Assembly (NCBI GenBank): GCA_963835575.1
Contig: CAWIGG010000002.1
Location: 1 to 64,000, forward strand
Reading direction: 5' to 3'
From: an uncultured Spirochaetota bacterium
GTDB taxonomy: Bacteria > Spirochaetota > Brevinematia > Brevinematales > JAOACQ01
DNA length: 64,000 nt
Positions within the stretch are counted from its first letter, which is position 1. Each line of letters starts with the position of its first letter. The notes under the pieces were generated by a model. The model had not been told where the DNA came from. It was given only the letters and a program-made list of their open reading frames with translations, and searched no databases. This document shows, piece after piece, positions 605 through 47,745 of this stretch. The position numbers and the translations under genes are program-made.

Positions 605-626
605 GTTGTACGAAGTTCGGCGGCAA

Positions 627-1229
627 TTATTTTTTCCAAGCTACTATTTTATTCAATGGATGCGTATGTTTAATACCACCTGGGTGTTCATCATCAAAAA
701 TGTAATTTTCATATAATTCAATTTTCCAATCATTATACAAAGTTTTTAATTCATCATCATTAAATAATCCTTTCATAAATTCAGCTAAATCTGGAGTAGG
801 CGCAATCTTGTTAGTAAAAACTACAACAACATTGACTCCATTATTGTTTGTATGTTGTTTCATTTCTTTAATTGATCTTTCCCATTCTTTTCTGTTTAAT
901 AAATGTAAAACACCATGAGAAATTATAAAATCATAATTTTGTTTAAATTCATAAGTTGATATATCTTGAACCCAAGCATTAATTTTAATTTTTTTATTCT
1001 TTGATATACTCTTTAATTTTTCAATTCCAGATTCAGAAATATCGAAAGCATCAACTGAAAATCCTTTTTCCGCTAAAAATAATGCATTCCTTCCTTCACC
1101 ACAGCCCATATCTAAAACCTTTATTTCTTTTGACAAAGTATTAGATAAATAAATAATTTCTTCACTTGGTTTGCCAAAAACGTTCGAATTTTTAACTTTG
1201 TAAGCTTCTTCCCAAAAAGGTTTATCCAT
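627..1229 (-). CDS. Class I SAM-dependent methyltransferase (TehB-like), cassette gene
   Basis: VLDMGCGEGRNALFLA motif I, DAFDIS. RBS GAGGT precedes the ATG at 1229. Confidence 0.85.
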   Translation of the reverse strand: MDKPFWEEAYKVKNSNVFGKPSEEIIYLSNTLSKEIKVLDMGCGEGRNALFLAEKGFSVDAFDISESGIEKLKSISKNKKIKINAWVQDISTYEFKQNYDFIISHGVLHLLNRKEWERSIKEMKQHTNNNGVNVVVVFTNKIAPTPDLAEFMKGLFNDDELKTLYNDWKIELYENYIFDDEHPGGIKHTHPLNKIVAWKK

Positions 1230-1270
1230 ATTTACCTCATTCTTCAATGAAAAGCCTGCCGCCGAATTTC

Positions 1271-1490
1271 GTACAACGGTCGGCGTTTGCGAAGTCGCTG
1301 AGGCTTAGAAAATGTTCACATTTTCAAGCCGAAGCGATTTGTCGAACCTTTTGTCCTTCTTCTCCGTCCTACCCGACAAAAGGTGAGACCGAGGAGCGCG
1401 CGCATCCAGCACCATTTTGTTCTGCTTCCTGTTTTTGCCCACAAAATGGTGCTGGAGAGCACGCACCGCAGCGCAAAAGCCGTGTTGGGC
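1271..1490 (-). repeat. attC-like site (220 bp, with extra internal hairpin)
   Basis: GTACAAC...GTTGGGC ends, complementary terminal arms, motifs shared with the other sites. Confidence 0.8.
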
Positions 1491-1510
1491 GAAGGTTTTG
1501 CCCATTATAA

Positions 1511-2254
1511 TTATTCGCCTTCTAAATGCCATTTTATAAATACAGAATTGTCATATTCATAAATTACTGTTTTACAATAAGTAATCGGACTGTTTTCATG
1601 ATATTCAATGAAATTATTTCCCGCTTTGTTGTATATGTTTAGGGAATAATCAATTTTAGTATTATCAGAAAAATATGTTCCTGATGAATTATTTGATGGA
1701 TATTCTTTTAATTGTCCGTCTCCATAAAATATATTAAAAATAATTAAATATGCTTGCTCAATTCTAATATCTTTTAATTGAATAAAATCTTCATCGTATG
1801 ATGATTCATTATCATGATGTGAATAAATAATTAAATTGCTATAATTAAAAGCATTAGTTTCAAAACCAGTGAATATTTGATCTTTATTTAATGAAAGATT
1901 ATTTTTGGCCCATTCAGGAAAAATTGAGATAAATTTATTTGTATTTGGATATTTGAGAAGATATCCATCAAATAAATATCCTATAATATTACTTATTTTT
2001 GTTGAAATCCAATAACCTTTCATTCCATCTATTTTATCAATTTTATCGATGCTATCTATTTTTATCTGTGTTGAAAATAAGACTTTTGATAGTATTTTTG
2101 AATTAATTGAAGGCTTTTCTCTTAGGAATAAGCCATTTTTGGCCCAAACATATAAATAATCATTAATTTTATAAAATAATTTTGGACTTCCTTTTGAAAA
2201 TAAAAAAGGAAAGGTGATAATTAGTAATAAAAATATTATTATAGATATTTTCAT
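1511..2254 (-). CDS. Exported SH3b-domain protein, cassette gene
   Basis: Signal peptide; YVWAKNGLFLREKPS...GYW...GYLFDGYL SH3b pattern. Confidence 0.7.
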   Translation of the reverse strand: MKISIIIFLLLIITFPFLFSKGSPKLFYKINDYLYVWAKNGLFLREKPSINSKILSKVLFSTQIKIDSIDKIDKIDGMKGYWISTKISNIIGYLFDGYLLKYPNTNKFISIFPEWAKNNLSLNKDQIFTGFETNAFNYSNLIIYSHHDNESSYDEDFIQLKDIRIEQAYLIIFNIFYGDGQLKEYPSNNSSGTYFSDNTKIDYSLNIYNKAGNNFIEYHENSPITYCKTVIYEYDNSVFIKWHLEGE

Positions 2255-2272
2255 CTTTTACCTCCAAGATGG

Positions 2273-3621: not shown

Positions 3622-3781
3622 GCCTAACGGTGCGGCTATACGACGTTTTGCGTCCCGTAGGGTTGGCGCGGCTTTTGCATCCCACGCAGCAAAAGACGTG
3701 ACAAAGCAAAATGTGTCCGCAGGACCGAGGAGCGCCCGGAGCCGCGCGAGGACGGAGCGGAACGTGTACGCCTTGTTGTAC
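3622..3781 (-). repeat. attC-like site (160 bp)
   Basis: GCCTAAC...GTTGTAC; very similar to 17730-17888. Confidence 0.85.
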
Positions 3782-7455: not shown

Positions 7456-7619
7456 GTACAACGGTACAGACAGACGACGTTTTGCGGCCCGTCAGGGTTG
7501 GCGCATTTTTTGCTTCCCCGTGCAAAAAATGTGACAAAGCAAAATGTGGCGCAGCCTGAGCACCGCAGCCCGTAGCTTCAGCGGAGGGCGAGGAGCGCAA
7601 CGTCTGTCTGTTGTTGGGC
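7456..7619 (-). repeat. attC-like site (164 bp)
   Basis: GTACAAC-GGT-ACAGACAGACG ... CGTCTGTCTGT-T-GTTGGGC. Confidence 0.85.
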
Positions 7620-8420: not shown

Positions 8421-8598
8421 GCCCAACGGTCGGCGTTTGCGAAGCCGGCGAGGCTTAGAGCTTTGCTCTTGCCGAGCCGGTTTGGTGAGCCCTGCGTTGC
8501 GCTACTTCCGGCCTACCCACGGGAGGGCGAACCCGAGCACCGCAGGCCGTAGCGACTGAGCGGAGGCCGAGGAGCGGAGCGCAAACGCCGAGTTGTAC
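8421..8598 (-). repeat. attC-like site (178 bp)
   Basis: GCCCAAC-GG-TCGGCGTTTGCG ... CGCAAACGCCGA-GTTGTAC. Confidence 0.85.
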
Positions 8599-10724: not shown

Positions 10725-10899
10725 GTACAACGGTGCGGGCAAGCGACGTTTGCGAGCCTTAGAACTGCTCAGCAGTTCTAGGCGAGCAAATGTGGTGAGC
10801 CCTGCGTATTCTTCTGCGGCCTACCCCACGCAGGGCGAATCCTGAGCACCGCAGGCCGTCGCAACGGCCGAGGAGCGGAACGTTTGCCCGCTGTTGGGC
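10725..10899 (-). repeat. attC-like site (175 bp)
   Basis: GTACAAC-GGT-GCGGGCAAGCG ... CGTTTGCCCGC-T-GTTGGGC. Confidence 0.85.
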
Positions 10900-29336: not shown

Positions 29337-29419
29337 GGACAATCTGGGAATAAACTATACTACTTTTTTTATCTATAATTTCCTTAGAATAGATTTTACT
29401 TTATTCTAAGGAGATAGAA

Positions 29420-29713: not shown

Positions 29714-29796
29714 ATTTCATCTTATTAAATTCCAAAAGTATCATTATAGTAAATCTGTTACTTTATGATAAAACTTTTATCATTATAAATTAAAAA

Positions 29797-30840: not shown

Positions 30841-30854
30841 CATAAATTCTTTTA

Positions 30855-31512: not shown

Positions 31513-34467
31513 ATGACAAGAAAGGAAGGGCTTTTAATAGTTGAACAAAAAGTTGAGGATTTTCAAAAAGGTGAGGCTGGTTTTTTATTAAAGTCATTTC
31601 AAGAAACGGAAACCAGAGATCGCTTTATCGACCCATTTTTTGAAGCCCTTGGGTGGGAAATGAAGCAGACTGGTGTATCGCGTCAATACTGGGATGTTCA
31701 TCGTGAATTTTCACTGAAAGATGATTCCTCTACAAAAAAACCGGATTATGCTTTCAGAGTAAAAGATATAGGTGTGCCTCACGATAAATTTAAAGAAAAA
31801 TTCTTTGTGGAAGCAAAAGCCCCGTGGGTTTCTCTTACCGACGCAAAACCTGTCTTTCAGGCTAAAAGGTATGCCTTTTCATCTCATGGTAAAGCCCCTA
31901 TAGCCATTCTCACAGACTTTCAGGAATTCCGGGTTTTTAATGGTCTTGAAAGACCACGTTTTGAAAATCCTCTGCAAGGATTAATTAAAGAACTGGATTT
32001 AAAATATACCGATTATTTAGCCAAGTGGGAAATACTTTGGGCTAACTTTTCAAAAGAAGCCGTTTATGACGGAAGTATTGAAAACCTCGCTGGAAAAGTT
32101 TCCAGAAACACAAAAACATTAGACGATGAATTTTTAAATGATATTATTGAATGGCGAGAAACGCTCGCCCGGAATGTCGCTATCCGAAATAAAAACTTAT
32201 CCGTCGATGAAATAAATGAAGCTGTTCAAAGAATTCTTGACCGTCTTGTCTTTATCAGAAATCTTGAGGACAGAAACATTGAAGATGAGAATCTTCTTAT
32301 GAATCTTGTTGACCGCCAGGATTATGAGGACGCGCATTTTTATAAATGCATAATTCCCTTATTTCGCAAATTCGATATTGATTATAACGGCCTTCTTTTT
32401 AAAAAGCATTTCAGCGAAGAATTGGAGATTGATAATAAAATCATCAAGGATATTATTAAAAGTATGAGTTCAGAAGTTTCTCCTTTCCGGTTTGATATAA
32501 TTGAACCTGAAATATTAGGGCATATTTATGAGCGCTTTCTCGGTTCAAAAATCCGGTTGACTGAAGATCACCGGGCTAAAGTTGAAATGAAACCGGAAGT
32601 GAATCATGCCGGCGGTGTTTTTTATACTCCTGAATATATCGTCAAATACATTGTTGAAAATACTGTAGGTGAAAAAGTAAAAGATAAAACACCGGAAGAA
32701 ATCGAACAACTCAAAATATTAGACCCGGCTTGCGGTTCGGGTAGTTTCTTACTCGGAGCTTTTGATTATCTGATAAAATACCATCAGGATTATTACTCTA
32801 AACTTTCCAAGACCGCCCGGAAAAAATACAAAGATTACTTTTTTGAAACCCCTGACGGTGAAATCCGGCTGACTTTGCAGAAGAAAGGCCGAATCCTCAA
32901 AAATAATATTTTCGGCGTGGATATCGACCGTGAAGCTACTGAAGTATCTATTATGAGCCTATATTTAAAACTTCTAGACGAAGGCTTTGACAAAGGGCAA
33001 GCATTACTATTTATGCGAGGGCATATTTTGCCGGATATGACAGCCAATATTAAATGTGGAAATAGTTTGATTGACCGTGAGCAATTATTTTCTAATGACC
33101 TTTTCGGTGATGAAGATATTAAACCTTTTGATTGGGATACTGAATTTTGGATAGGTGGCTTTGACTGTATTATCGGCAATCCTCCGTATATCAGAATTCA
33201 GGAAATGCAAAAATGGGCGCCTAAAACAGTTTCTATTTACAAAAATATATATAAATCCGGCAGTTCAAATAATTTTGATATTTTCGTGTTATTCCTTGAA
33301 AAAGCCTTGATGCTTTTGAATCAAAAAGGGCTTTACGGTTTTATCGTACCAAACAAATTTATGCAGCAGGAATATGGTCAAAATATTCGAGAAATATTAA
33401 GCAGTGGAAAGCATATATTTCAGATCATTAATTTTAAAGATTTTCAGGTCTTTAAAAACGCTACTACTTATACTTCTCTAGTTTTTGCCTCAAAAAACCC
33501 AAACATTTCATTTAACTATGCTGAGGTCAAGAACGAATTGGTTAACTTTCATCTTACACAAAAAGACTTTTCTTCTATTACAGCAGATCCCTGGCTTCTA
33601 CATGATGAAAAAGATGAATTGTTAATTAAATCTCTGTCAAAATACCCTATCCTTGCCGATCTGTCCACCAATATCTTTGTCGGTGTTCAGACCAGTGCTG
33701 ATAAAATATTTATTCTTGATTTCATTGAAGAAAAGGAAAACTCCTATGTTCTTTATTCAAAATCTGTTGAACGTCAGATTGAATTGGAAAAGACTTATGT
33801 AAAACATGTTATCAGCGGTCTGGATGTAAAACGTTATTTAATTCCGCCAAAAAGACAATATATTATTTTTCCTTATAAGATTGAGAACGAAAAAGCAATT
33901 CTACTTTCTAAAGCCGATCTGGAAAACAACAGCCCGAAACTGTGGGAATATTTATTTGAAAACAAAAAAGTCCTTGAAGATAGGGAGAATGGACGTTTAA
34001 AAGGCAAAGGCTGGTATGGTTACATATACCTAAAAAATATGTCTTTACAAGATAAACCTAAATTATGTGTGCCTCGTTTAGTACAGAAAATTCAATGCAC
34101 TTTTGATGCTAATGGTTCTTATTGTCTTGATAATGTGGATGTCGGCGGAGTTATACTTAAAGAAGAATACAATCATTTATATTATTATATTATGGGGCTT
34201 TTGAATTCTTCCCTGCTCAGTTTTTATCTAACCAAAATAAGCACACCATTTCGGGGTGGCTTTTGGTCGTGTAATAAGCAATATCTTGAAAAACTGCCAA
34301 TTTATCTTCATTACCCGCAAGATAAAGATAAGTATGCTCTCTGTCAGAAGATTGAAGAAATGGTTAAACAGATTATAGAACTCAAGAAAGATGAAAAACG
34401 TTTGAAGGATGCTGAATTTCTTGAAAGAAAGATTGATGAGATGGTTGAGAAAATTTATTTGGAGTGA
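31513..34467 (+). CDS. Type IIG-like fused restriction-modification enzyme, paralog of 14643-17624
   Basis: Near-identical REase/MTase part and C-terminal helix, different TRD. Confidence 0.9.
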   Translation: MTRKEGLLIVEQKVEDFQKGEAGFLLKSFQETETRDRFIDPFFEALGWEMKQTGVSRQYWDVHREFSLKDDSSTKKPDYAFRVKDIGVPHDKFKEKFFVEAKAPWVSLTDAKPVFQAKRYAFSSHGKAPIAILTDFQEFRVFNGLERPRFENPLQGLIKELDLKYTDYLAKWEILWANFSKEAVYDGSIENLAGKVSRNTKTLDDEFLNDIIEWRETLARNVAIRNKNLSVDEINEAVQRILDRLVFIRNLEDRNIEDENLLMNLVDRQDYEDAHFYKCIIPLFRKFDIDYNGLLFKKHFSEELEIDNKIIKDIIKSMSSEVSPFRFDIIEPEILGHIYERFLGSKIRLTEDHRAKVEMKPEVNHAGGVFYTPEYIVKYIVENTVGEKVKDKTPEEIEQLKILDPACGSGSFLLGAFDYLIKYHQDYYSKLSKTARKKYKDYFFETPDGEIRLTLQKKGRILKNNIFGVDIDREATEVSIMSLYLKLLDEGFDKGQALLFMRGHILPDMTANIKCGNSLIDREQLFSNDLFGDEDIKPFDWDTEFWIGGFDCIIGNPPYIRIQEMQKWAPKTVSIYKNIYKSGSSNNFDIFVLFLEKALMLLNQKGLYGFIVPNKFMQQEYGQNIREILSSGKHIFQIINFKDFQVFKNATTYTSLVFASKNPNISFNYAEVKNELVNFHLTQKDFSSITADPWLLHDEKDELLIKSLSKYPILADLSTNIFVGVQTSADKIFILDFIEEKENSYVLYSKSVERQIELEKTYVKHVISGLDVKRYLIPPKRQYIIFPYKIENEKAILLSKADLENNSPKLWEYLFENKKVLEDRENGRLKGKGWYGYIYLKNMSLQDKPKLCVPRLVQKIQCTFDANGSYCLDNVDVGGVILKEEYNHLYYYIMGLLNSSLLSFYLTKISTPFRGGFWSCNKQYLEKLPIYLHYPQDKDKYALCQKIEEMVKQIIELKKDEKRLKDAEFLERKIDEMVEKIYLE

Positions 34468-34500
34468 TTGGATTAGAAAAAAGTTAATTGAGGTTATTAT

Positions 34501-35736
34501 ATGAATGGAAAAAAAAACGATCAAAACGATTTTATCTGTTATATAGGTAATAAGAAAGAAATATCCTTAGAGAAAATACGCTTAAGAATAAAAAATTATC
34601 TGGAACTGGATAATGTTAGTATTCTTGCCGGTGCAGGTACAAGTTTTCATATTGGCGCGCCTATAATAAGAGTAATTCCAAAAGAAATAAATGACTCATT
34701 ATTAAGCGATAAAGAAATAAAAGATTTTTACAAAATTAAAATAGATGAAATCAGTAAAGATAAAAATAACAACAAGGGTATATCTCTCGAAGATTTTCTC
34801 AATTATTTACAGGCAGATAGATTTTGTGCAATAACAAGATCAGAAGACATAACTAATTATGACATTTTAATTAAAAAAATTCAAAGTGAATTATTTTTAC
34901 GATGTAATACTCAGAATACAAACTTACATAATGATTACAAAGAAGATTCTAATTTAAAGGAAAATAGATATTTTTATCATGAGAAATTAATCAAAAAAAT
35001 ACTCCTAAGACCAATTAATCTGAGACGTGTCAATCTTTTTACTTCTAATTATGATTTGGCTTTTGAATATAGTTTTGATAATACAGGAATATATTATATA
35101 AATGGTTTTTCTGGTTTTCAGAGACGATTTTTTCATCCTGAATCCTATGATTATGACGTTTATTATCCTGGTCAAACTACAAGCGGAAAAGTGCATCGTG
35201 CTGAAAAAGTTTTACGTTATTATAAATTACATGGTTCTTTATCTTGGATTTTTACTGAACAAAATGCAAGAAATTTATATGGAATTGAAGAAATTTATAT
35301 TGATAAAAAACCAGAAAACGAATTAGTAATATATCCATGTGTAACAAAAAAAAGATTTACTCTCGATTTGCCTTATTCCGAATTATTCAGACATTTCTCA
35401 AATTCTATTAAACTAAACCAGTCAGTATTGTTTTGTATTGGTTATTCTTTTAATGACGAACATATAAATGATATAATCTATCAGGCTCTTTCAATTCCTT
35501 CTTTTACTCTTTTTGTAATTGATTATAAAGCTACGGATAATAAAGAAATTAATAAATTAAAATCTCTCAATGATCCACGTATTTTAATAATTGAAGGTAA
35601 ATATGCGAAATTCACTAAATTTGTTACTGATGTTTTACCTGATATATATGATGAAAAAGATGAAATCAAGATTACTGAAACAATGAATAAATTATATAAT
35701 ACTGATAATAATGATGAGGAAATTTCAGATGTCTGA
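34501..35736 (+). CDS. SIR2-like NADase of Sir2-HerA defence system
   Basis: LAGAGTS, FTSNYD, KLHGSLSW, IGYSFNDEHIN. Confidence 0.9.
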   Translation: MNGKKNDQNDFICYIGNKKEISLEKIRLRIKNYLELDNVSILAGAGTSFHIGAPIIRVIPKEINDSLLSDKEIKDFYKIKIDEISKDKNNNKGISLEDFLNYLQADRFCAITRSEDITNYDILIKKIQSELFLRCNTQNTNLHNDYKEDSNLKENRYFYHEKLIKKILLRPINLRRVNLFTSNYDLAFEYSFDNTGIYYINGFSGFQRRFFHPESYDYDVYYPGQTTSGKVHRAEKVLRYYKLHGSLSWIFTEQNARNLYGIEEIYIDKKPENELVIYPCVTKKRFTLDLPYSELFRHFSNSIKLNQSVLFCIGYSFNDEHINDIIYQALSIPSFTLFVIDYKATDNKEINKLKSLNDPRILIIEGKYAKFTKFVTDVLPDIYDEKDEIKITETMNKLYNTDNNDEEISDV

Positions 35737-37852
35737 TCGTCAAATAGGCCGTGTTGTATCTGTAGATAATTTTCGTGTTTTTGTAAAGCTTGATGATGAT
35801 CTAACAAGTACACATAAAAGCGGTTTTAATGACATTTACGAAGTTGCACGCATCAATTCTTATCTTATCATACCTGTGGGTTCAGATAGAATAGTAGCTT
35901 TAATTACAAGGGTCAAAATGCAGGAAGAACCCGAATTCGATAAAAATAAACAATCTATTTCACTGCCTTCTTCTTCCAGATATATTACCGCAACTATGCT
36001 AGGCACAATTGAAACAAGAAATAATAAAGAAATATTTATTCAAGGCGTATATAATTTTCCGGTTCTCGATAATGTAGTCTGGTTCATTACCGCGGATGAT
36101 TTAAATAAAATATTCGATTATAATGAATCTTCCGAGATAGATTATTCTAAAGACTTTTATCTTCCTATCGGTAATTCTCCAGCTTTTCCGGATTATGATG
36201 TGAAAATCTGCCCTGACCAACTTTTCGTAAAACATACGGCAATTTTAGGAAATACCGGGTCTGGTAAATCGTGTACGCTTACTTCCATATTGAAATCCAT
36301 TTTTAACTATAAATTTAAGACAAAAGTTGCTGGTCAAACGGAACAAAGTGAAGAATGTTATTTGAAGAATGCCCATTTTATTATATTTGATACTAATGGA
36401 GAATATAAAAATGCTTTTATTTCTGAAGGTGAACAATTCGAAAGAATAAATACCCTGGTTATTGATGATAAAGGTCTAAAAGTACCTTACTGGTTTATGA
36501 ATTGGGATGATTTTGATTATTTGTTTGAGCCGGGTTCTGGCACACAAGCTCCAATTTTGAAAAGAGCAATAGGATTGGCTAAAAATATTACAGAAGCTAA
36601 AACAAATAATTTGCTTAATAAAGTTTTGGAAGGATGCCTCGTAGAAATTATAAATTCTGCTTGCGGTTGTGAAGAATGGAAATTCAAAGCTAAAAGAGAA
36701 AAAGATAAAAATTTTGATTGTAATAATCAAATACTTCAATTATCAAAAGAACTGGAAAAGTATTCTGAACTGAATTTAAGAAATATTTCAGAGAAATTAA
36801 AAATTTTAGGTAAAAAAGATTTAACATTAACTGAAAAAACACAATCAATTAATGAAATTGAATTAAGTTATAAAAAATATAAAGAAAGTTTGATTGATCA
36901 ACAAATAATGACAGAAAAGAATATTGATCTTCCAGTATGGTTTAAGTATCAAGAATTAATTACAAAGTACATTGATTCCGCTATTGAAGAACATGAGGGT
37001 TCTTCTTCAAAAATTAGTGAATATGTCTCAACACTTAGATTGCGTTTGGAAGGCTTTTTTAATGACCGGCGTATTGCCGATCCTTTATTATTAAATATTG
37101 AAGCAGAATTTACAGAATCTTTAATAAAATTCATTTCATTTATCTTTGGCGATTTCTACCGATCCTTAAATAATAATGAAACCGATGTTTATTCAGAATA
37201 TTATAATCAATTAAAATATGATCAATTTGAAAATATACCAAATAAAGGAAAAGCAAACCAGATCACAATTCTTGATATGTCACTTATCCCTTTTGATGTA
37301 CTTGAAAATTTGACTGGACTTATAGGTAGACTGATAATTGAATTTGTGGAGCATTTTAAACCTGAGGAAAGAGGTCGGTATCCAATAGTAATTGTATTAG
37401 AGGAAGCTCAAAATTATATACCGGAAAAGAACAGGAAGGACCGGGAATCCATAGCAAAGAAAGTTTTTGAAAGAATAGCCCGTGAAGGACGTAAATATGG
37501 TATTTCATTAATAGTATCCAGCCAAAGACCTTCGGAATTATCAAAAACTGTGTTGTCTCAATGCAATTCATTTATCATTCATCGGCTACAAAACCCTGAC
37601 GACCAAAAATATATAAAAGGACTTGTTTCCAGCGCCAATAGTGATATTTTAGATCAGCTACCGATACTCCCGCAACAGCATGCAATAATCATGGGTGATT
37701 GCGTCCGTACCCCTGTACAAATGAGAATAAATGATATATCACCCAAACCAAATAGTGACAACCCAAGATTTATTGAAAAATGGCTTGAAAGTAATAATGA
37801 TTTTCCTGATTACAAAGAAATTTGTGACAGATGGGAAGAAGGTAAAAAATAA
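35729..37852 (+). CDS. HerA/DUF87 ATPase of Sir2-HerA defence system
   Basis: N-terminal HAS-like barrel, GNTGSGKS, LEEAQNY, REGRKYG, SQRPSE; overlaps SIR2 stop. Confidence 0.9.
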   Translation: MSDRQIGRVVSVDNFRVFVKLDDDLTSTHKSGFNDIYEVARINSYLIIPVGSDRIVALITRVKMQEEPEFDKNKQSISLPSSSRYITATMLGTIETRNNKEIFIQGVYNFPVLDNVVWFITADDLNKIFDYNESSEIDYSKDFYLPIGNSPAFPDYDVKICPDQLFVKHTAILGNTGSGKSCTLTSILKSIFNYKFKTKVAGQTEQSEECYLKNAHFIIFDTNGEYKNAFISEGEQFERINTLVIDDKGLKVPYWFMNWDDFDYLFEPGSGTQAPILKRAIGLAKNITEAKTNNLLNKVLEGCLVEIINSACGCEEWKFKAKREKDKNFDCNNQILQLSKELEKYSELNLRNISEKLKILGKKDLTLTEKTQSINEIELSYKKYKESLIDQQIMTEKNIDLPVWFKYQELITKYIDSAIEEHEGSSSKISEYVSTLRLRLEGFFNDRRIADPLLLNIEAEFTESLIKFISFIFGDFYRSLNNNETDVYSEYYNQLKYDQFENIPNKGKANQITILDMSLIPFDVLENLTGLIGRLIIEFVEHFKPEERGRYPIVIVLEEAQNYIPEKNRKDRESIAKKVFERIAREGRKYGISLIVSSQRPSELSKTVLSQCNSFIIHRLQNPDDQKYIKGLVSSANSDILDQLPILPQQHAIIMGDCVRTPVQMRINDISPKPNSDNPRFIEKWLESNNDFPDYKEICDRWEEGKK

Positions 37853-37987
37853 ATATAAATTTAAAACATAAAAAGCCACTTTTTTAAAATATTTTAAGGA
37901 AGTATTAAAAATGGCAGCGCTAACTCTAATCTCCGCAGTTATTCCGGCGGAGACAAAGATGGGATTCTTTTTCCAAGCCATATATTA

Positions 37988-38762
37988 AGCTTTCCTCGGG
38001 CACTCCCGAAAACTCCGGCGCGGTCGCCGTCCTTCCACTGCCTGCGTTTTCGGGAGTGCCCTCGTCAAGCTTCCTGTTTTCAACCCTTTGAGCACTGCCT
38101 CACTCTTAACATAATTTTTCTTATGGTCAAGCAAGCGAATTAATCGCACTTTTTTATACTGATATTCCTCTATTTTTTTATAAAGTTATTTTATAATTTA
38201 TTCTTTTTTCTACCGATGGCTCAATGGAGTAAACGCCTGCCCATAAGAAGAAATTATGTTAAGTAGCAAAGGATTTAATAATTTTTATATCCTGCATCTT
38301 TCTTATTCTCTAAAATCTTTTCTTTATTGTTGCTTTCTCAACCTTTGCTAACGTTCGGCGCGCTCAAAGGGTTGAAAACAGGGCTGGCGCATTTCGTTAT
38401 TATTTTCCACCCTGCCCGCCCGTATAGAATGAAGCAAAAAGCATAGCTTTTTTTATGAGCTGTCCCGTCCGTCCCGTAGATATTCTTTTTCTCTTTCAGG
38501 TTCCAATTTCGGGACTCCCCTTTGTCCTTTTTCACTTGTCAGTACCGTTTTAAAACCGTGCTCTTTAAATATTTTCACCCTGCCTTTTTTATTATACCGT
38601 GAGAAAAATAAAATAGTCCACTTCGCCAAGGGTAAAGTCGCAAGCTCCCGATTTAAAAATATTTTATTGTCTTAAAAACAGAAATGCTTTTTTTAAAAAC
38701 CAAGGGTCTTTATTACAGGTTAAAATATTTTTAAATCGCCCTTGCTATTTTATTTTTCTCGC
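37988..38762. other. Non-coding region with several long nested inverted repeats
   Basis: GGGCACTCCCGAAAAC/GTTTTCGGGAGTGCCC; GTTTTCAACCCTTTGAGC/GCTCAAAGGGTTGAAAAC; GAGAAAAATAAAATAG/CTATTTTATTTTTCTC. Confidence 0.75.
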
Positions 38763-38822
38763 TGGTGTTGTATTTAGTCAGGGTTAGAAATTTTATTATA
38801 ACTCAAATTTTAGGAGGTATTT

Positions 38823-39203
38823 ATGTCAGCTTATATTGTCAGCAAAGATCACATTTCTGCGTTAGTCAGTTTTTGTAATGCGAAAAATGTTTATGTGTAT
38901 TATGATGGGAAAAAGTTTGATGTCACGAATCTTGACGCTATTGGTCAGATTCTCGTGAATGAAAACTACCGTTCAGTTAATACCCGGTATAGTTCAAACG
39001 ATGCCCCATTTGTTTACGAGTTTCAATATCTGCAACGGCATTTTACGCTTATTCAGATTATTAAACTATGTCATTGCTATAATTATCAGTCATGTGAAAC
39101 GGAAGATTATTATGAATCTCTTGCCTATGCGATTGTGAGAGGTATCGAATCTCATGCTGTCCGGTTATTACCTGGCTATGAAGAAGCGGAATGGGGTTTA
39201 TAG
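38823..39203 (+). CDS. Hypothetical protein of phage/plasmid type
   Basis: Strong RBS AGGAGGT; EN.RSVN.RY, YQSCE, LPGYE.A.W motifs. Confidence 0.7.
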   Translation: MSAYIVSKDHISALVSFCNAKNVYVYYDGKKFDVTNLDAIGQILVNENYRSVNTRYSSNDAPFVYEFQYLQRHFTLIQIIKLCHCYNYQSCETEDYYESLAYAIVRGIESHAVRLLPGYEEAEWGL

Positions 39204-39256
39204 TTTTGAAGCGTTATTGAAACGGAATTGAAGCGGAGAAGGTCTCCTTAAGAAAT

Positions 39257-39298
39257 AAAAAAGCCCCTGCATTTTATAGATTTATGCAGGGGTTTTAG
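39257..39298. terminator. Bidirectional terminator between convergent genes
   Basis: AAAAAAGCCCCTGCAT...ATGCAGGGGTTTT. Confidence 0.7.
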
Positions 39299-39321
39299 TT
39301 TGCGATATCCGGCCGGGATTA

Positions 39322-39651
39322 TCAGCTCGGCATAAACGGAGTTGTAGGAGCTGTCCCATTGTTTGCGTTTTTGTAGTTTATATATCCGCTCACATACAGG
39401 TTAAAACCGCTCATCTGCTGACCACTTGCAGCACTATTCCAGGCGTCTTTTGTCGCCTGTGTTTCCGCCTGCCAGGCCGCTACCGCCGCCGTAAAATAGT
39501 CCCTGACTTTAAGCTGATTTTCAGTCTGGGGATTTGAAGGTACAGTATACTGCCTGCTATAGTTGATCCCCTTCCATTTTGCGAAAACCATCGTATCGGC
39601 AAATGTGCCGCTTGCGTCAAGGGACATCAAAGGCCCTGTTACTTTTGCCAT
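39322..39651 (-). CDS. Hypothetical protein (SG...WKG..Y.R...NP.T..Q..R..F family)
   Basis: RBS AAGGAGGT; coherent GC-richer ORF. Confidence 0.7.
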   Translation of the reverse strand: MAKVTGPLMSLDASGTFADTMVFAKWKGINYSRQYTVPSNPQTENQLKVRDYFTAAVAAWQAETQATKDAWNSAASGQQMSGFNLYVSGYINYKNANNGTAPTTPFMPS

Positions 39652-40159
39652 AGTATTTCCACCTCCTTAAAGGATATAATTTTAAACAAATATTTTTTAC
39701 CCTTTATTAATAGTCATTTTTAAGGGTATCGAAATGAAATAAATGGTTGAATTTAATCGGCAGGGAAGAATGACTGAATAAAACAAACAGGTTACATACG
39801 GAAAGTTAATAAATATTATCGGAAAGCAAGATATTATGGAGATCAATGCTGGGGAATAATAGGTTAAAAAACCTATTACGAACTATTTAAAACCCTTAAA
39901 AACTATTTGTAAAGCTCATTGGAAGTTTTTAAAACCATAAAAATATTTATGGTATTATTTATGATTATATTTATATTCTCTGTTTTCCTTGACAGTACCT
40001 TAAATTTGTCTTAATATTTAGGCATACTGTTAACAATACTATTCAAATACTTGACGGAGAGAATTTTCCGTGAAATCGATTTTGAAATAGAAATATCTGT
40101 TCTATTTATCATATTCTTAATTAGAATTCCGAATATTAAATATGAAGGGGGCGTAGCTT

Positions 40160-40708
40160 ATGATTAGTTATAAATTTAATGAAACAAAAGCAATTCAGTT
40201 AATCGCTTTTCTTCTTAAGCAAGATAATACAAAAGATTATAATAATTATACAAAAATTATCAAACTTTTATACTTGGCAGATAGAGAAGCATTAAATAGG
40301 TGGGGAAGATCAATAACAAAAGATATTTATGCAAATCTTCCAGCGGGGCCGATTGTAAGTGAAACTTATGATTTAATTAAGGAAATGAAAAAAGGGGCTA
40401 ATGAATTTATTTGTTCTAAAAATGAATATGATTTGGCATTAGTAAGTGATCCTGGTGATGATGAATTAAGTAATGCAGAAATTAAGCTACTTAGAGAAAT
40501 ATCTGAAAAATATAAGGATAAAACATATCAAAAAATGGTTGATGAGGTTCATCGTCTTCCTGAATGGGTTGATCCAAGACCTAGAGGGAAAAAATCATTA
40601 TCAGTTGAAAATATTTTAGAAGTGTTAAATAAAACAGATGATGAAATTAAAGAAATTGAAGTATCAAACAAAGAAGAAAACTATATAATTAATGTCTTAG
40701 GTTTATAA
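40160..40708 (+). CDS. Panacea (DUF4065/SocA-like) antitoxin
   Basis: KIIKLLYLADRE.L..WGRSIT.D.Y..LP.GP, H.LPEW.DP. Confidence 0.8.
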   Translation: MISYKFNETKAIQLIAFLLKQDNTKDYNNYTKIIKLLYLADREALNRWGRSITKDIYANLPAGPIVSETYDLIKEMKKGANEFICSKNEYDLALVSDPGDDELSNAEIKLLREISEKYKDKTYQKMVDEVHRLPEWVDPRPRGKKSLSVENILEVLNKTDDEIKEIEVSNKEENYIINVLGL

Positions 40709-40709
40709 G

Positions 40710-41087
40710 ATGAAAAAAGGGGGGACATTCTACGGCAACCCAGAAGGAGCCTCTCAACCCCATCTACACTGTATAATTACAGACTCATCCGAGCATAAAG
40801 AAAAAGGTAAATGTCTTTTTGTTCATATGATTTCATATAATGAAGGTAATCCGTATTCAGACCGTTCTTGTATTTTAAATAAAGGTGATCACCCATTTAT
40901 TACACGTCCAACTTGCATAAATTATGCTGCTGCAACGGAAATAGATTTAGAGAATCTTGAATTTGCTGTTAGTCGATGTTTGTGTGAAGAAAATGCCCCT
41001 CTATCCTTAGAAATCTTAGAGAGAATACGTGAAGGGGCAAGACTTTCTGATCATTTACCTAGAAAATATAAATACTTATTCGAATAA
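40710..41087 (+). CDS. Probable toxin paired with Panacea antitoxin (PemK/MazF-like fold suspected)
   Basis: Starts 1 bp after the antitoxin stop; HL..II, D.SC.L.KGDHPFI motif. Confidence 0.55.
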   Translation: MKKGGTFYGNPEGASQPHLHCIITDSSEHKEKGKCLFVHMISYNEGNPYSDRSCILNKGDHPFITRPTCINYAAATEIDLENLEFAVSRCLCEENAPLSLEILERIREGARLSDHLPRKYKYLFE

Positions 41088-41431
41088 AATAAAGAAATTT
41101 AATCATTCAAAGAAAGAATTATGAATTTTCATCATAATAAAATAAGCAATAATTATTATTTCTAAATATTGTGTTAATTTTTCGACACTATAAAAAGGAT
41201 TAAACAGAGTTTTTAGAGTCCGTAAAAAAGGCATTGAATATATTAAAATTAATAGTAAAACAATAAAATAACTATAAGGTTCCATTGTAAAACAAAAAAA
41301 TAACAAAAAAGTAAACGATATTAGAAATCTTATAATAATTACTTTTCCCTAAAAATGTTATTGTTTTGTTACCAAATAGGTTTTATAATTCACTTATCTT
41401 ATTGCTATTATATATATTAACAACTCTATAA

Positions 41432-41509
41432 GCAAAAACTGTGACAAAGCAAAATGTGGGCGCATCCCCGCAGGGCCGATAGGCCCGTAGCGTTTACACC
41501 GGGTTGTAC
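41432..41509 (-). repeat. Right part of split attC-like site (attR side)
   Basis: GCAAAAACTGTGACAAAGCAAAATGTGG...GTTGTAC continues the 26505-26592 half. Confidence 0.85.
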
Positions 41510-42118: not shown

Positions 42119-42276
42119 GTACAACGGTGCGCGTAGAAGAAGTTTGGCGGCCCGTCAGGGTTGGCGTCTTTTTTGCATCCCACGCGCAAAAAAGATGACA
42201 AAGCCAAATTTGCCGCAGGCCGAGCACCGCCCGGAGCCGCGCGAGGACGGAGCGGAGCTTCTACGCGTTGTTGAGT
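42119..42276 (-). repeat. attC-like site with IS1182 inserted at its GTT end
   Basis: GTACAAC-GGT-GCGCGTAGAAG ... CTTCTACGCGT-T-GTT|GAGT. Confidence 0.85.
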
Positions 42277-43994
42277 CTGTCGAAAAAGTGATATTTAATG
42301 TAAATTATTATCGATATAGCTTAAAATAATGAATGAAATAAATCAATAGCGGAAGGTTATATGGCAAGATACAAGACAGTTAATTATGAGCAGATGGAAA
42401 TGATACCGCTCAATTTTTCAGATCAGCTGATCGAAGGAACATATGAACACACACTCAATTTCCTAATCGAGGAAAAGGCTGACCTTTCCTGTTTTGATAT
42501 AAATTATAAAAATGATAAAACAGGCTCGAAAGCGATTTCTCCGGCAATTCTTCTGAAAATAATCCTTTTTGCCTATTCGAAAGGTATTACTACATCACGC
42601 AGGATTGAGGAAGCTTGCCGGGTGAATGTCATCTTCAAAGCCCTGTCCGGGAATACCGTTCCAGACCATTCCACTATAGCCGCTTTTGTTACCGGTATGA
42701 AAGACCGGATTAAAATAGTATTTCAGTTTGTGCTGATGGTCTGTTCTTCTGCGGGATTGATCGGCGGGGACATGTTCGCCGTTGACGGCTGTAAATTGCC
42801 TTCAAACGCTTCTAAAGAATGGAGCGGTACATTCAAAGACCTGAAAAAGAAACAGGAAAAGTTTGAAAAGCTGGCGGCATTTCTACTGGAAAAACACGCG
42901 CAAGCTGACTGCTCCGGCGAAAATGAAAAGTCTAAAGCGCTTCAAAAAAGATCGGAAAAAATACGGAAGAAAGCGGAGAAAATCGATGCCTTTCTCAAAT
43001 CCCAGAATCCCAAATACGGCAAGCGGGGACGTGAAAACCAATCGAATATTACCGATAACGAAAGCGCGAAAATCAAGAGTTCCCACGGTGTGATACAAGG
43101 TTATAATGGACTTGCGGTAGTGGATTCAAAGCATCAGGTGATTACCGCGGCGGAAGCTTTTGGTTTAGGCCAGGAAGGGGAAGTATTGAAGCCGATGGTT
43201 GAAATAACGGAGGAAAATTTAAGCGTGATAAAAGGAGAAACAAATCCGCTGGAAGGAAAAACAATACTGGGGGACACGAATTATTTCAGCGAAGAAAATC
43301 TAAAATATCTGGCGGAAGAAAAGAAGATGGAAGCTGTGATACCGGACAATCAATTTCGAGGGAGGGATGAACGGTTTACCGATCGGGGAAGGTTCAAGCC
43401 GAAACCGATGAAATACCGGGAACACGATTTTGAAAAAAATGAAGCTGATAATACTTATATATGCCCGAATGGAAAAATATTAAGCTATAAGGGATACCAG
43501 AGGCAATTGAGTAATTTCGGCCATAAATATCAGGCCAGGCAGGCGGATTGTTCAAAATGCGGGAAAAGGGGACAATGCTTAAAACATCCCGATAAGACAA
43601 GGCAAAGAACATTATATCTGGTGGACAAAAGAGGGGATAAAAACTATTCAAAAGAAATGGTAAATAAAATTGATCTGCCGGAAATCAGGGATTTGTACAG
43701 CCGGAGGATGGGAATAATTGAGCCGGTATTCGGTAACATCCGTTCTTGTAAAGGTATGGACCGTTTTACGCTCAGGGGTAAGAGTAAGGTTAATATCCAG
43801 TGGCTTTTGTTCTGTATAGTGCATAATATTGGTAAAATCCAGATATTTGGTAAGATTTAAGGGGGTGTTCATAGCCATAATACCGGCTTGAAATTGGAAA
43901 AATGGAAAATCCGGATAGAGAAATGAAAAATGATACTCTATCCGGCTTTCAGAAGACAGTTTTTATTCTCGTTTTTGGCTTTTTCGACAGGGTC
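42273..43994 (+). mobile_element. IS1182-family element, complete
   Basis: IRs GAGTCTGTCGAAAAAG / CTTTTTCGACAGGGTC; GTT on both flanks. Confidence 0.9.
42361..43860 (+). CDS. IS1182-family transposase
   Basis: LLKIILFAYSKGI.TSR.IE, PDHSTIA, AVDGCK, QGYN, YICP.GK, IEPVFG.I. Confidence 0.92.
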   Translation: MARYKTVNYEQMEMIPLNFSDQLIEGTYEHTLNFLIEEKADLSCFDINYKNDKTGSKAISPAILLKIILFAYSKGITTSRRIEEACRVNVIFKALSGNTVPDHSTIAAFVTGMKDRIKIVFQFVLMVCSSAGLIGGDMFAVDGCKLPSNASKEWSGTFKDLKKKQEKFEKLAAFLLEKHAQADCSGENEKSKALQKRSEKIRKKAEKIDAFLKSQNPKYGKRGRENQSNITDNESAKIKSSHGVIQGYNGLAVVDSKHQVITAAEAFGLGQEGEVLKPMVEITEENLSVIKGETNPLEGKTILGDTNYFSEENLKYLAEEKKMEAVIPDNQFRGRDERFTDRGRFKPKPMKYREHDFEKNEADNTYICPNGKILSYKGYQRQLSNFGHKYQARQADCSKCGKRGQCLKHPDKTRQRTLYLVDKRGDKNYSKEMVNKIDLPEIRDLYSRRMGIIEPVFGNIRSCKGMDRFTLRGKSKVNIQWLLFCIVHNIGKIQIFGKI

Positions 43995-44013
43995 GTTATA
44001 TGCCGTTGCCCAA

Positions 44014-45086: not shown

Positions 45087-45272
45087 ATATAACGGCACAG
45101 ACAAGCCGACGTTTTTTCGGCTTAGAGCCAGGCTTGCCGCTCTTAGCCGAAAAAATGTGGTGAACTTTTTGTCCTTCTCCTCCGGCCTACTTCTCAAAAA
45201 GTGAACCTGAGGAACGGAACCCGGAGCGACTGAGCGTAGGGTGAGTACCGGAACGTTTGTCTGTTGTTAGCT
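45087..45272 (-). repeat. attC-like site (186 bp)
   Basis: ATATAAC-GGC-ACAGACAA ... TTGTCTGT-T-GTTAGCT. Confidence 0.85.
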
Positions 45273-45451: not shown

Positions 45452-45931
45452 TTATTCCTCCTTATTTAGTAATTCTAAAGGTGTGATAATTTCAGGTATA
45501 TACAATCCCAATCTAGTATTAATAATTCTGATGTGTTGTTTTTTATTTCCATTTGCCAAATGAGTACAATTCCAGGTCAATAAAAAATCGATTTTATAAT
45601 AAGACGCATAAGATAAATGAAGTGCATCTCCACCTAATTCTTTAGGCATTAAATAATTGTCAATATAAATCTGTGCGATATCAAGAACATCTTTATTTGG
45701 AGGTAAAACGGTAAGTTTCAAAGCGTTTTGAAGAACTTGTTCTTTTCTTGGATAATTACTTTCTCCAAGCTCTTTTAATGTTTCTTCTGATAAGGATACT
45801 TTATAAAATTTCTTTTCTTCTTTCCACCATTTTTTTGTGATATCAATAAGAAATTGAATCTCTTCCCTTTCATCATAAAGAAAACTCAGAACTGTAGAAT
45901 CTAAATAAACAGATTTCATAAAATATCCCAC
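45452..45931 (-). CDS. PIN-domain (VapC-like) protein
   Basis: VYLDSTVLS, DALHL, LLTWNCTHLAN, ITPLEL. Confidence 0.85.
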   Translation of the reverse strand: MGYFMKSVYLDSTVLSFLYDEREEIQFLIDITKKWWKEEKKFYKVSLSEETLKELGESNYPRKEQVLQNALKLTVLPPNKDVLDIAQIYIDNYLMPKELGGDALHLSYASYYKIDFLLTWNCTHLANGNKKQHIRIINTRLGLYIPEIITPLELLNKEE

Positions 45932-46024
45932 TTATTTTTTATTAATTATAATACTAAAATGAAATTATCACACTTTTTTTATTGCGTTTTTTGTTTTATA
46001 ACAAAGCCAGGCAACCGGCATTTC

Positions 46025-46200
46025 AGCTAACGGTGGCGGACAAACGACGTTTGCAAGCCTTAGAGCCAGGCTTGCCGCTCTTAGGCTTGCAAATGTGGTG
46101 AACCTTTTGTCTTTCTCCTCCGTCCTACCCAACAAAAGGTGAACCCGAGGAGCGCAGGCGTCGCAACGCCGAGCACCGCAGCGTTTGTCCGCTGTTGGGC
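46025..46200 (-). repeat. attC-like site (176 bp)
   Basis: AGCTAAC-GGTG-GCGGACAAACG ... CGTTTGTCCGC-T-GTTGGGC. Confidence 0.85.
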
Positions 46201-46588
46201 GATGGCGGCCAATTCTCTGAATGAATAAGATTTTCCGCAGGCAATTATTTCGCTGAATTTCTCAGTCTTTCTATAAATATCATTACTTGACAACGGCACT
46301 TATTTTCTTACATATGCCTGCGACCATAACCCTTCTCTTTATTCATTATAATCAAAAATGCCCATAATAATTTTATCAAACAGCCTTTATTTTTTCAAAT
46401 AAGAATTCTTAAAAAATAATATTTTCAAGTAAAAAAAACAACATAAAAATAATTTTATTTCTATTATAACTAATTTATAAGCCAAATATCTAAATTATCT
46501 CTTACAACCTGAACTACGCAGAGAAATATCCGTCCTTCCCGGGCATTTTTGAATGTTTATTATACAGCATTGGCCGCTTTCGCCCAAC
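46194..46588 (-). other. First cassette, ORF-less, with candidate promoter
   Basis: Bounded by GTTGGGCGAnnGCGGCCAAT inverted repeats; no credible ORF; TTGGGC-17-TATAAT at 46587-46559. Confidence 0.7.
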
Positions 46589-46655
46589 TCTATATAAAAG
46601 AATTTCGTTTTTTATGAAAATAATTACTACGATTTATTGTATAAAATACGAAATT
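46582..46655 (-). promoter_or_regulatory. attI-like site
   Basis: Cassette end GCCCAAC is followed by AT-rich non-attC sequence 95 bp from the integrase stop. Confidence 0.7.
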
Positions 46656-46683
46656 GAATCAGATTATTTTAATAAGCTAATAT

Positions 46684-47745
46684 TTAAGTGTCAAGATTAG
46701 TTTTTTTTAAGCTTAGAGTTACATCAAGGGGGCTGATAATATTTTTAACTATGTTTTTTGAAATATGGGTATAGATCTCTGTCGTTTTTAGACTTTTGTG
46801 CCCCAGAAAGGTCTGGATATACCGGATATCTGTTCCATTTTCCAGAAGGTGTGTCGCGAATGAATGCCTCAGACAGTGAATACTGCATTTTTTATTGATC
46901 CCGGTTTTTATAACGGCATTTTCAAATACTTTTTCCGCTGTTCTTATCGTTATGTGGCTGTTTATGTCATAACTTGGAAAAAGCCAGATGAGAGTATTGT
47001 AATGTTTGGTATAATCATCCATCAATGAAAGGATGATATCCGAAAGTATGGTGATCCTGTCTTTATTCCCTTTGGCCTTCCTGATAAATATCTGCTTTCT
47101 TTCACGGTCAAGGTCTTCAATTTTTAGTTTGACAGCTTCGCTGACCCTTAATCCGGCCGAATATATAATGGAGATTAAAAGTTTGTGTTTTAAATTATCG
47201 ATACCGGATAGTAATTTTATGATTTCCCCTGTATTTAAAATCACAGGAAGCTTTTTGTCTTTTTTTGCCCTGGGTATGTATACCGTAAAATCCTTCTTCA
47301 ATATTTTACCATAGAAATATTTAATCGCGTTAACGGCGCAATTAATAGTTGACGAGGACAGGTTTTCTTCATCCGCGAGATAATAAAGGTATTCCATAAT
47401 TTCAGGCCTGGTTATTAATTCCGGTTTTTTCCCATGATATTCAAGCATATTTTTATTGTAATAAAGATATGAGGCTATTGTCTGAGAACTGTATTTTCTG
47501 ATCTTAAGCTCTTTCTCCAATACGGTCAGATAATGATCGTAAGAGAATAATTCGTGATAACTTTCCGGGAATAATTCCTTTAGCCGGATAATATTTTCTT
47601 TTTTCGGGTTTATTAACCAGCATTTATTCTGCTTGTCCCATTTGCTTCCGGAAATTGTATGCATTTTCTCAATTAAATCTATGTCATAAAGGAAACACAC
47701 CTCAATTTCCCCGCTATTATTATATCGCATCTTCACATCTTTCAT
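46684..47745 (-). CDS. Integron-associated tyrosine recombinase (Xer/IntI-like, no IntI-specific insertion visible)
   Basis: SAM-like YS.QT..SY domain, SAGLRVSE, KAKGNKDR, HCLRHSFATHLLE.GTDIR.IQ..LGH....TEIYTH; extra N-terminal domain. Confidence 0.85.
   Translation of the reverse strand: MKDVKMRYNNSGEIEVCFLYDIDLIEKMHTISGSKWDKQNKCWLINPKKENIIRLKELFPESYHELFSYDHYLTVLEKELKIRKYSSQTIASYLYYNKNMLEYHGKKPELITRPEIMEYLYYLADEENLSSSTINCAVNAIKYFYGKILKKDFTVYIPRAKKDKKLPVILNTGEIIKLLSGIDNLKHKLLISIIYSAGLRVSEAVKLKIEDLDRERKQIFIRKAKGNKDRITILSDIILSLMDDYTKHYNTLIWLFPSYDINSHITIRTAEKVFENAVIKTGINKKCSIHCLRHSFATHLLENGTDIRYIQTFLGHKSLKTTEIYTHISKNIVKNIISPLDVTLSLKKTNLDT

Follow-up and report, generated by a model that had tools for sequence, protein, structure and literature searches.

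The 64-kb window analysed here (64,000 nucleotides at the start of contig CAWIGG010000002.1, from an uncultured Spirochaetota bacterium of the order Brevinematales) contains a long array of gene cassettes that stops beside the gene of a tyrosine recombinase, hereafter named P0001. Our analysis indicates that array and enzyme very probably form a sedentary, chromosomal, integron-like gene-capture platform, run by an integrase that lacks the insertion (additional domain) of classical integron integrases (IntIs) and has an extra N-terminal domain. We take P0001 to be the integrase of the array because the genome holds no other candidate, because a second array with sites of this family begins at the gene of a paralogue, because two copies of that second platform diverge precisely at the junction where cassettes would be inserted, and because the arrangement of gene, attI and array is kept in relatives. 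Both the definition of an integron integrase and the search for integrons rely on the additional domain: IntegronFinder demands its presence, and the cut-off of the NCBI model depends on it. If our reading is true, integron surveys undercount whole phyla, many of the arrays classed as CALIN (attC-site clusters without an integron integrase) have an integrase beside them, and a natural enzyme without the I2 helix offers a direct test of whether this helix is needed to recombine a folded attC site.

The contig that begins with the window is 2.05 Mb long, and its genome, of 4.39 Mb, is 94% complete and consists of seven contigs (C1 to C7 below), with contig breaks at array repeats. Its first 47.7 kb are AT-rich and uneven in composition (GC content 0.26–0.50), and housekeeping genes (lepA, maf and rnf genes) occupy the region from 48 kb onward (GC content 0.41–0.53). 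The lepA gene (48081–49895) adjoins the gene of P0001 on its upstream side and encodes a protein with 86% identity to one from a Brevinematales metagenome-assembled genome (MAG) and 77–78% to those of Brevinematia; these identities point to a host of the Brevinematales type.

A recombinase without the additional domain

P0001 matched the Pfam families Phage_integrase (4e-37) and Phage_int_SAM_4 (3e-17), and its best match in the PDB was the integron integrase VchIntIA (2a3v), in the sequence comparison (E 3.6e-43) as well as in the fold comparison (E 1.6e-16), with XerA as the second-best fold match. The candidate catalytic residues R200, K225, H290, R293, H316 and Y325 were invariant or nearly so in 103 homologues. 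The NCBIfam integron integrase model TIGR02249 gave 213.7 bits against a cut-off of 265 and matched P0001 only at the two ends of the profile. Similarly, the alignment with 2a3v fell into two pieces, with 27 residues of P0001 lying opposite 69 of VchIntIA. We compared the interval between the KDR and HxLRH motifs in an alignment of 51 sequences. The interval was 71 residues long in P0001 and 112 in 12 of 12 IntIs; it measured 70–73 residues in all 34 insertion-less rows, among them that of P0001, and 64–77 in the Xer-like proteins of this genome and other recombinases. The AlphaFold model of P0001 (predicted local distance difference test score, pLDDT, 89) had no extra helices between the β-hairpin and the helix that precedes HxLRH. 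It did have, at approximately residues 1–66, an additional domain-sized unit that was modelled with confidence.

An earlier reading made from the sequence alone (the sequence-only reading) had stated that the enzyme lacks the IntI-specific insertion, is of Xer length in this interval and bears an extra N-terminal domain of approximately 60 residues, and all of this was borne out; no full I2 insertion appeared in the alignment. Its further statement, that standard tools would miss the system, held for the NCBIfam model, as the scores above show. For IntegronFinder we infer the same outcome: the region modelled by its intI_Cterm profile is absent from P0001, so this profile would be expected to miss it. 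The Xer models did not claim the protein either, with XerD at 172.6 bits (cut-off 329.6), XerC at 157.1 (cut-off 335) and the archaeal XerA model (NF040815) just under its cut-off (215.8 against 220). P0001 is like XerC/D and XerA in the length of its catalytic domain, and it differs from them in being tied to an array rather than to a single dif site, in a genome with XerC/D-like genes of its own.

A quick maximum-likelihood tree of 51 sequences placed the 12 IntIs in one clade (Shimodaira–Hasegawa-like approximate likelihood-ratio test, SH-aLRT, 100) and the Xer-like proteins of the genome in a separate one (SH-aLRT 99). P0001 fell outside both, grouping with its paralogue P0050 (encoded on contig C6), a protein from a Spirochaetota MAG and one from a related genus. 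Its position outside the IntI clade argues that it is not a recent IntI that lost the insertion. In the quick tree the IntIs were nested inside the insertion-less family. We do not build on this nesting, as the approximately unbiased test did not reject a single insertion-less clade (p 0.727) and the tree constrained to such a clade was better by 10.66 log-likelihood units. IntI is monophyletic and P0001 lies outside it; we claim no order of descent between the two.

The nearest parallel among known systems is found within the same phylum. Co-oriented ('reverse') chromosomal integrons of Treponema were reportedly described by Coleman et al. in 2004, and the accessible text of Wu et al. 2013 (PMC3607928) likewise describes the Treponema chromosomal integrons as co-oriented. 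As in the window, the Treponema integrase gene reads toward attI and the cassettes, the stop codon is followed at a short distance by attI, and the chromosomal array contains insertion sequences (ISs). The likeness pointed out by the sequence-only reading, a co-oriented intI in Treponema, proved to be closer than it had assumed, since Treponema-type IntIs (open frames of 395–475 aa) have an N-terminal extension that profile–profile alignment showed to be homologous to that of the insertion-less family. The hhalign alignment spans the proteins end to end (columns 5–345 against 2–418), and the one large insertion in it is the additional domain. Unlike P0001, these IntIs have kept the full additional domain (112 residues) and score 358–508 bits against the cut-off of 265. 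Together, the insertion-less enzymes with the N-terminal domain, the IntIs with both insertion and N-terminal domain, and the classical IntIs without the N-terminal domain offer a comparison set for the evolution of IntI from Xer-like enzymes.

Classical integrons (IntI1; VchIntIA) have in common with the window the G/TT crossover in attI, imperfect-palindrome attC sites with AAC/GTT cores, an SPLD-type C-terminal tail of the integrase, cassette starts that complement their own R'' box, and a cargo rich in defence genes. P0001 differs from the classical enzymes in being without the additional domain, in having the extra N-terminal domain and in being co-oriented with the cassettes. The sites differ from classical attC in their length (150–216 nt), their branching and an asymmetric internal loop beside R', and the cassettes reach 8.8 kb.

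The array, its sites and their predicted folding

On the minus strand, ten attC-type sites and the R'' remnant of an eleventh (at 605–611) bound eleven cassettes in a single orientation (Table 1). The array begins at an attI-like junction, TTTTATATAGAGTT/GGGCG, in which the G of GTT lies at 46588, 95 nt past the stop codon of P0001. The number of sites, the remnant at 605, the junction and its distance from the co-oriented recombinase gene are all as the sequence-only reading had given them. The genes of this range are not all on the minus strand; those on the plus strand belong to three ISs and a 15-kb inserted element. A candidate cassette promoter precedes the junction. A consensus scan of this region gave 15 promoter-like sites against 9.6±2.8 in shuffled sequence, so the promoter is to be taken as a candidate only.

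Each site consists of an RYYYAAC-like R'' box, a short spacer, the L'' arm, a branched and variable centre, the L' arm, a longer spacer and GTT. In the sites of the first three cassettes, the R'' boxes CGCCCAAC, CAGCTAAC and GGCATATAAC are complementary to the cassette starts GTTGGGCG, GTTAGCTG and GTTATATGCC respectively. For cassette 3, an ACTCAAC at 42276 had been considered as the R'' box, which made the cassette seem discordant; it was rejected because the ends of the IS that splits this site place R'' at 43995–44004. Over the whole array the cassette start after GTT matched its own R'' perfectly over 5 nt in 8 of 11 cases and with one mismatch in two others, which marks them as true cassettes and not just repeats. 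A profile built from nine attC sites of the window found 50 matches in the genome, namely the nine input sites and 41 more, which lay in arrays on C6, C7, C3 and the far end of C2 and as scattered single sites. An Rfam scan found no family at the attC sites, its sole matches in the window being two tRNAs at 60155–60351.

The folding of the sites was assessed on 35 evaluable near-full-length sites across the genome. The L''/L' stems were perfect over 8–12 bp in 26 of the 35, and the stem sequences varied widely from site to site. In 32 of the 35 the spacer before R' was 2–4 nt longer than that after R'', typically with A opposite ACC or CACC. Bulged bases within the L stems were not found by the stem search, which was ungapped; the surplus unpaired bases lie instead between L' and R'. 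When one site was folded as single-stranded DNA, its z-score was −3.9 for the cassette-sense strand and −5.25 for the other strand. Because pairing is kept while the stem sequence changes, we consider a folded single strand, as in attC, to be the probable substrate.

Alternatively, P0001 might run the array as an Xer-like double-strand recombinase acting on GTT cores, with no single-strand hairpin pathway. The missing insertion, which in VchIntIA reads the flipped-out bases, would fit such an enzyme, and in one study an IntI without the insertion region reportedly shifted toward double-strand activity. Against this, the L stems vary in sequence and yet pair perfectly and R'' and R' lie a whole site length apart, which together imply that a folded structure is recognized and not two fixed double-strand arms; moreover, the unpaired bases before R' provide an asymmetry that marks the strand. 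We thus regard recombination by the double-strand route alone as unlikely.

On our reading, the enzyme would bind the folded single strand of attC-type sites, a view suggested by the conserved pairing, cleave at the AAC/GTT core and carry out the exchange with attI, so that cassettes would enter in one direction and be read from the integrase side. Recognition without the I2 helix could depend on the 2–4 unpaired bases that are conserved ahead of R' (A opposite (C)ACC), with the N-terminal domain, as a junction-binding HARP-like domain, contributing further. That these bases and this domain stand in for the I2 helix when the folded site is read is a proposal we make tentatively, as we incline slightly to doubt it. 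Of the six sequences scanned with the Pfam HARP model (PF07443, cut-off 25), P0012 (27.0) and P0036 (27.4) scored above the cut-off, and P0029 and P0043 below it. With the N-terminal 82 residues of P0001, Pfam gave DUF5710 alone (E 0.0063). The model of the domain matched the SMARCAL1 HARP structure 4o66 weakly (Z 3.6, root-mean-square deviation 2.3 over 47 residues, Foldseek probability 0.60); Foldseek returned no match at E ≤ 0.001 and VIA-align none with Z ≥ 5. The HARP domain of SMARCAL1, MotA, the N-terminal domain of UvsW and XPB are structure-specific DNA-binding domains considered to be mutually related. By family membership it is plausible that the N-terminal domain of P0001 is HARP-like.

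Enzyme and array in this genome and beyond

Alternatively, the array might be a CALIN that was left by, or is serviced in trans by, a canonical IntI that was lost or escaped assembly, with P0001 as an Xer-like bystander. The incomplete assembly, its breaks at array repeats and the score of P0001 under the integron-integrase cut-off would agree with this. No protein above the TIGR02249 cut-off was found in the genome itself, nor in any of 43 genomes of the same class, and such IntIs were present in 42 of 401 genomes sampled across the phylum. Furthermore, the array stops exactly at a conserved motif 95 nt after the gene of P0001, separate XerC/D-like genes exist elsewhere in the genome, and the geometry of gene, attI and array is seen again with a paralogue of 47% identity, as well as in further genera and phyla. 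The CALIN explanation is therefore very improbable in our view.

The paralogue, P0050, heads an array of the same site family on C6. Its stop codon is followed by approximately 95 nt, then by ...TATATAAAGAGTT and then by the array, and the junction ...TATA(A/T)AGAGTT is common to the attI of the window and to the C6/C7 platform, where ACG...CGTAT-like repeats precede it. The platform copies on C6 and C7 were identical at 1399 of 1400 positions over the 1.4 kb up to GTT and at 112 of 300 after it. Divergence right after GTT is the footprint expected of different cassettes inserted at attI, suggesting that attI serves as the insertion point. A third copy of the P0050 type, on C1, is a pseudogene with a stop codon and an R-to-K change in HxLRH, and the contig ends exactly at the junction.

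Within the class, homologues of P0001 were found in 7 of 40 other genomes searched. An attI-like motif was present at the loci of four relatives (L023, L025, L026 and L027). When the site profile was applied to the loci of eight relatives, matches lay downstream of the gene in three, and were strong in two of these (L025 and L026), which have arrays with sites of this type. Four of the five negative loci had ≤400 nt of downstream sequence; the fifth, L024, had 18 kb without matches and a broken gene.

More than 7,800 proteins matched P0001 at E ≤ 1e-10. The best matches had 45–51% identity and approximately 340–380 aa, and their sources call them 'site-specific tyrosine recombinase/integron integrase' or XerD. 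From a cross-phylum sample with one genome per species, 80 of 589 loci were returned; 46 loci were usable (≥1.5 kb of downstream sequence). Twelve cross-phylum loci that we inspected had a ...GTTA junction 57–157 nt after the stop codon. We then walked from cassette to cassette, each step requiring that a start GTTxxxxxx find its complement xxxxxxAAC, followed by an L stem and by GTT. Chains of at least three steps, starting 30–300 nt after the stop codon, were obtained at 11 of the 46 loci and in none of 96 control windows, and chains of at least two steps at 17 of 46 loci against 8 of 96 control windows; because the walker is strict, these counts are lower bounds. Among 1191 random GTT starts there was one chain of three steps. 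Walks of one step were discarded as uninformative, since 161 of the 1191 random starts gave one. The arrays belonged to Flavobacteriia and other Bacteroidota, an Ignavibacteriota MAG, a Bacillota MAG and Saccharibacillus kuerlensis; for example, chains ran for 10 steps in Flavobacterium enshiense and in an Aquimarina, for 5 in a Bacillota MAG and for 3 in S. kuerlensis. The layout of gene, attI and array is found with homologues in other genera and in the phyla Bacteroidota, Bacillota and Thermodesulfobacteriota. According to the available text of the IntegronFinder 2.0 paper (PMC9024848), Bacteroidetes and Firmicutes have almost no integrons. Our full-text literature searches, which did not extend to subscription journals or bioRxiv supplements, turned up no account of an array headed by an insertion-less integrase; a possible account of this kind, PMC13616975, was unrelated as far as its accessible text goes.

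Insertion-less relatives of IntI are themselves not new. The accessible part of the work of Smyshlyaev, Barabas and Bateman (10.1101/542381) attributes the closest relatives of IntI, in which the insertion is absent, to IS91 and IS3 transposons, and groups these recombinases with IntI in an 'integron-like' subgroup of simple tyrosine recombinases that resembles P0001 in this respect. P0001 might come from a mobile element, for example one of IS91 type whose integrase lies upstream, which inserted beside or within the array and takes no part in capturing cassettes. On Clostridium estertheticum plasmids (e.g. locus L137), close relatives that lack the N-terminal domain are annotated immediately upstream of IS91 transposases, and the IS91-linked plasmid proteins have approximately 42% identity to P0001 over its residues 76–352. 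In that part of the source the subgroup is described as associated with transposons and not as heading arrays. Beside P0001 there is no IS91-family transposase; its neighbours are attI and the cassettes downstream and lepA upstream, the gene stands at the end of the array and not within a site, and the layout is kept in orthologues and in the diverged paralogue. An origin of this kind, with no part in cassette capture, is very improbable.

Several points nevertheless weigh against reading P0001 as the integrase of a cassette-capturing platform. Recombination by P0001 is read entirely from sequence. With the genome 94% complete, an unassembled intI is conceivable. The difference between C6 and C7 could arise from unresolved repeats or a mixed population and not from two loci. 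The element is patchy, as none of four genomes of the same genus had a homologue at E 1e-40 or better. In the array, the start of cassette 6 is discordant with its own R'' (1 of 11), so that this cassette, which contains an IS21 insertion, may be a fusion; several cassettes hold more than one gene and are of very large size, up to 8.8 kb. The Pfam HARP model was not detected in P0001 itself or in P0050, and the fold matches of the N-terminal domain are weak (T4 MotA C-terminal domain, Z 4.8; T4 UvsW N-terminal domain, 4.7; XPB, 4.0). In the cross-phylum sample, 29 of the 46 usable loci had chains of fewer than two steps; these may be members without an array, or their arrays may have been missed by the strict walker. 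Finally, relatives with approximately 42% identity and without the N-terminal domain adjoin IS91 transposases on Clostridium plasmids, and the insertion-less family is not exclusively integron-like.

Taking both sides together, we consider it highly likely that members of the insertion-less family would catalyse the insertion and excision of cassettes. The sequence-only reading had proposed a distinct integron-like class and named what would speak against it, and none of this was encountered: P0001 does not align with a full I2 insertion, neither the rest of the genome nor any of the class's 43 genomes yielded a canonical intI, and homologues do flank similar arrays, in the paralogue, in related genera and in other phyla. 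A broader proposal is, in our estimate, evenly balanced between right and wrong: that P0001 represents a second, widespread integron class in which a HARP-like domain and an asymmetric site loop take the place of the I2 insertion and enable an enzyme of Xer length to work on folded single-stranded attC, that this class extends over Spirochaetota, Bacteroidota, Bacillota, Thermodesulfobacteriota and probably archaea and candidate phyla, for which few integrons or none are reported, and that it is near the ancestral form of classical IntI. Its closeness to the form from which classical IntIs arose is suggested by the N-terminal domain and the co-orientation that it has in common with the Treponema-type IntIs.

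Features of the array and its insertions

The cassettes carry two type IIG restriction–modification (R-M) genes, ApeA-like and NucS-like genes, a KAP NTPase with an ATP-grasp gene, a block of Fur, ferritin, catalase/peroxidase and DUF4491 genes, a methyltransferase and small open reading frames (ORFs). The cargo is thus mostly anti-phage defence, with an oxidative-stress operon in addition, and its richness in defence genes fits the idea of chromosomal integrons as defence banks set out in the accessible part of 10.1101/2024.07.02.601686. No public sequencing runs covering 44900–47800 were listed.

Table 1. Coordinates of the recombinase gene, the attachment sites, the cassettes and the inserted element (window positions unless a contig is named)
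Feature	Position	Strand	Content or basis
Tyrosine recombinase P0001, 353 aa, putative array integrase	46684..47745	−	Co-oriented with the cassettes
N-terminal extra domain, ~residues 1–66	47548..47745	−	β-β-α-β-β-α; models, pLDDT mostly 80–96
Candidate cassette promoter TTGACA-17-TAAAAT, 11/12	46666..46694	−	Consensus scan; overlaps the recombinase stop, points into attI
attI region	46586..46683	−	Crossover GTT, G at 46588
attC 1, 172 nt	46029..46200	−	Cassette 1 = 46588–46031, without a convincing ORF
attC 2, 182 nt	45091..45272	−	Cassette 2 = 46031–45093; ORFs of 159 aa and 86 aa
attC 3, split by an IS (body 42273–43994) at AAC of R''	42123..44004	−	R'' 43995–44004, remainder 42123–42272
Cassette 3 cargo	44014–45054		NucS-like PDC-S11 gene; PADLOC
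attC 4, left half (R'' + L'')	41432..41509	−	Forms inverted repeat I3 together with the right half
Cassette 4 cargo	41531–42124		197-aa ORF
attC 4, right half (L' + R' GTT)	26509..26536	−	
attC 5, 155 nt	17734..17888	−	Cassette 5 = 26511–17736, 8.8 kb: type IIG R-M, KAP NTPase, ATP-grasp, two small ORFs
attC 6, 171 nt	10729..10899	−	Cassette 6 = 17736–10731: type IIG R-M, ApeA/PDC-S58, IS21 insertion (11282–13594, +), 99-aa ORF
attC 7, 174 nt	8425..8598	−	Cassette 7 = 10731–8427: 237-aa ORF, IS256-family transposase (8798–10048, +)
attC 8, 160 nt	7460..7619	−	Cassette 8 = 8427–7462: 155-aa ORF
attC 9, 156 nt, L''/L' poorly matched, hybrid-looking	3626..3781	−	Cassette 9 = 7462–3628: Fur, ferritin, catalase-peroxidase, DUF4491
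attC 10, 216 nt	1275..1490	−	Cassette 10 = 3628–1277: IS481-family transposase (2354–3517), SH3-domain ORF
attC 11 remnant, R'' box only	605..611	−	Cut by the second attC-targeting IS copy (window 1–604) at the contig start
Cassette 11	1277–605		TehB-like methyltransferase
~15-kb insertion splitting attC 4, ends approximate	26537..41431	+	Pfam, PADLOC, repeat I3
15-kb element, integrase	26722–27816		Tyrosine integrase with arm-binding domain
15-kb element, other genes			HTH_17, Rep-like, sigma-70 region-4 protein, type IIG R-M (third in the array)
15-kb element, defence			SIR2 + HerA; SocA/Panacea antitoxin with 125-aa partner
P0050-type platforms	C6:425.6–428.2 kb; C7:1.9–5.8 kb; C1:10.0–11.16 kb		

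Four IS families interrupt the array. One of them, with a DDE_Tnp_1_6/DUF772 transposase, has two copies in the window (42273–43994 and 1–604), each inserted precisely at the AAC/GTT triplet of the R'' box of an attC site. Genome-wide it is present in six full and four partial copies, with GTT at every evaluable end (GTT/GAGTCTG...GGGTC/GTT), and most of the flanks of these copies are attC arms. From these flanks the IS looks to be one that targets attC cores, a habit for which its family is not known. For the 15-kb element that splits attC 4, direct repeats or att repeats marking its ends were sought and none was convincing.

Two stretches of the cargo stand out. The block of the 3.8-kb cassette 9 (3839–7326, GC content ~0.50) is a complete oxidative-stress set, much larger and more operon-like than usual integron cassettes. 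At 19734–19964, beside the ATP-grasp gene, seven in-register copies of a 21-nt tandem repeat lie at the 5' end of, and just upstream of, a 122-aa ORF (19423–19791), and the repeats and the ATP-grasp gene may represent a repeat-peptide precursor with its ligase.

Single attC-type sites away from arrays include C2:1248079–1248259, C2:249169–249325, C5:159858–160021, C5:367272–367430 and C6:142481–142645, among others, and one of the scattered sites is approximately 2.3 kb from an XerC/D-like gene (C2:1244996–1245784). Outside this lineage, a Chryseobacterium sp. plasmid (NZ_CP041688.1; locus L138, locus coordinates 8974–18960) has an insertion-less gene followed by co-oriented small genes; an IS110-family transposase and a group II intron, each on the opposite strand, interrupt this run of genes. 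The locus resembles a mobile form of the platform described here.

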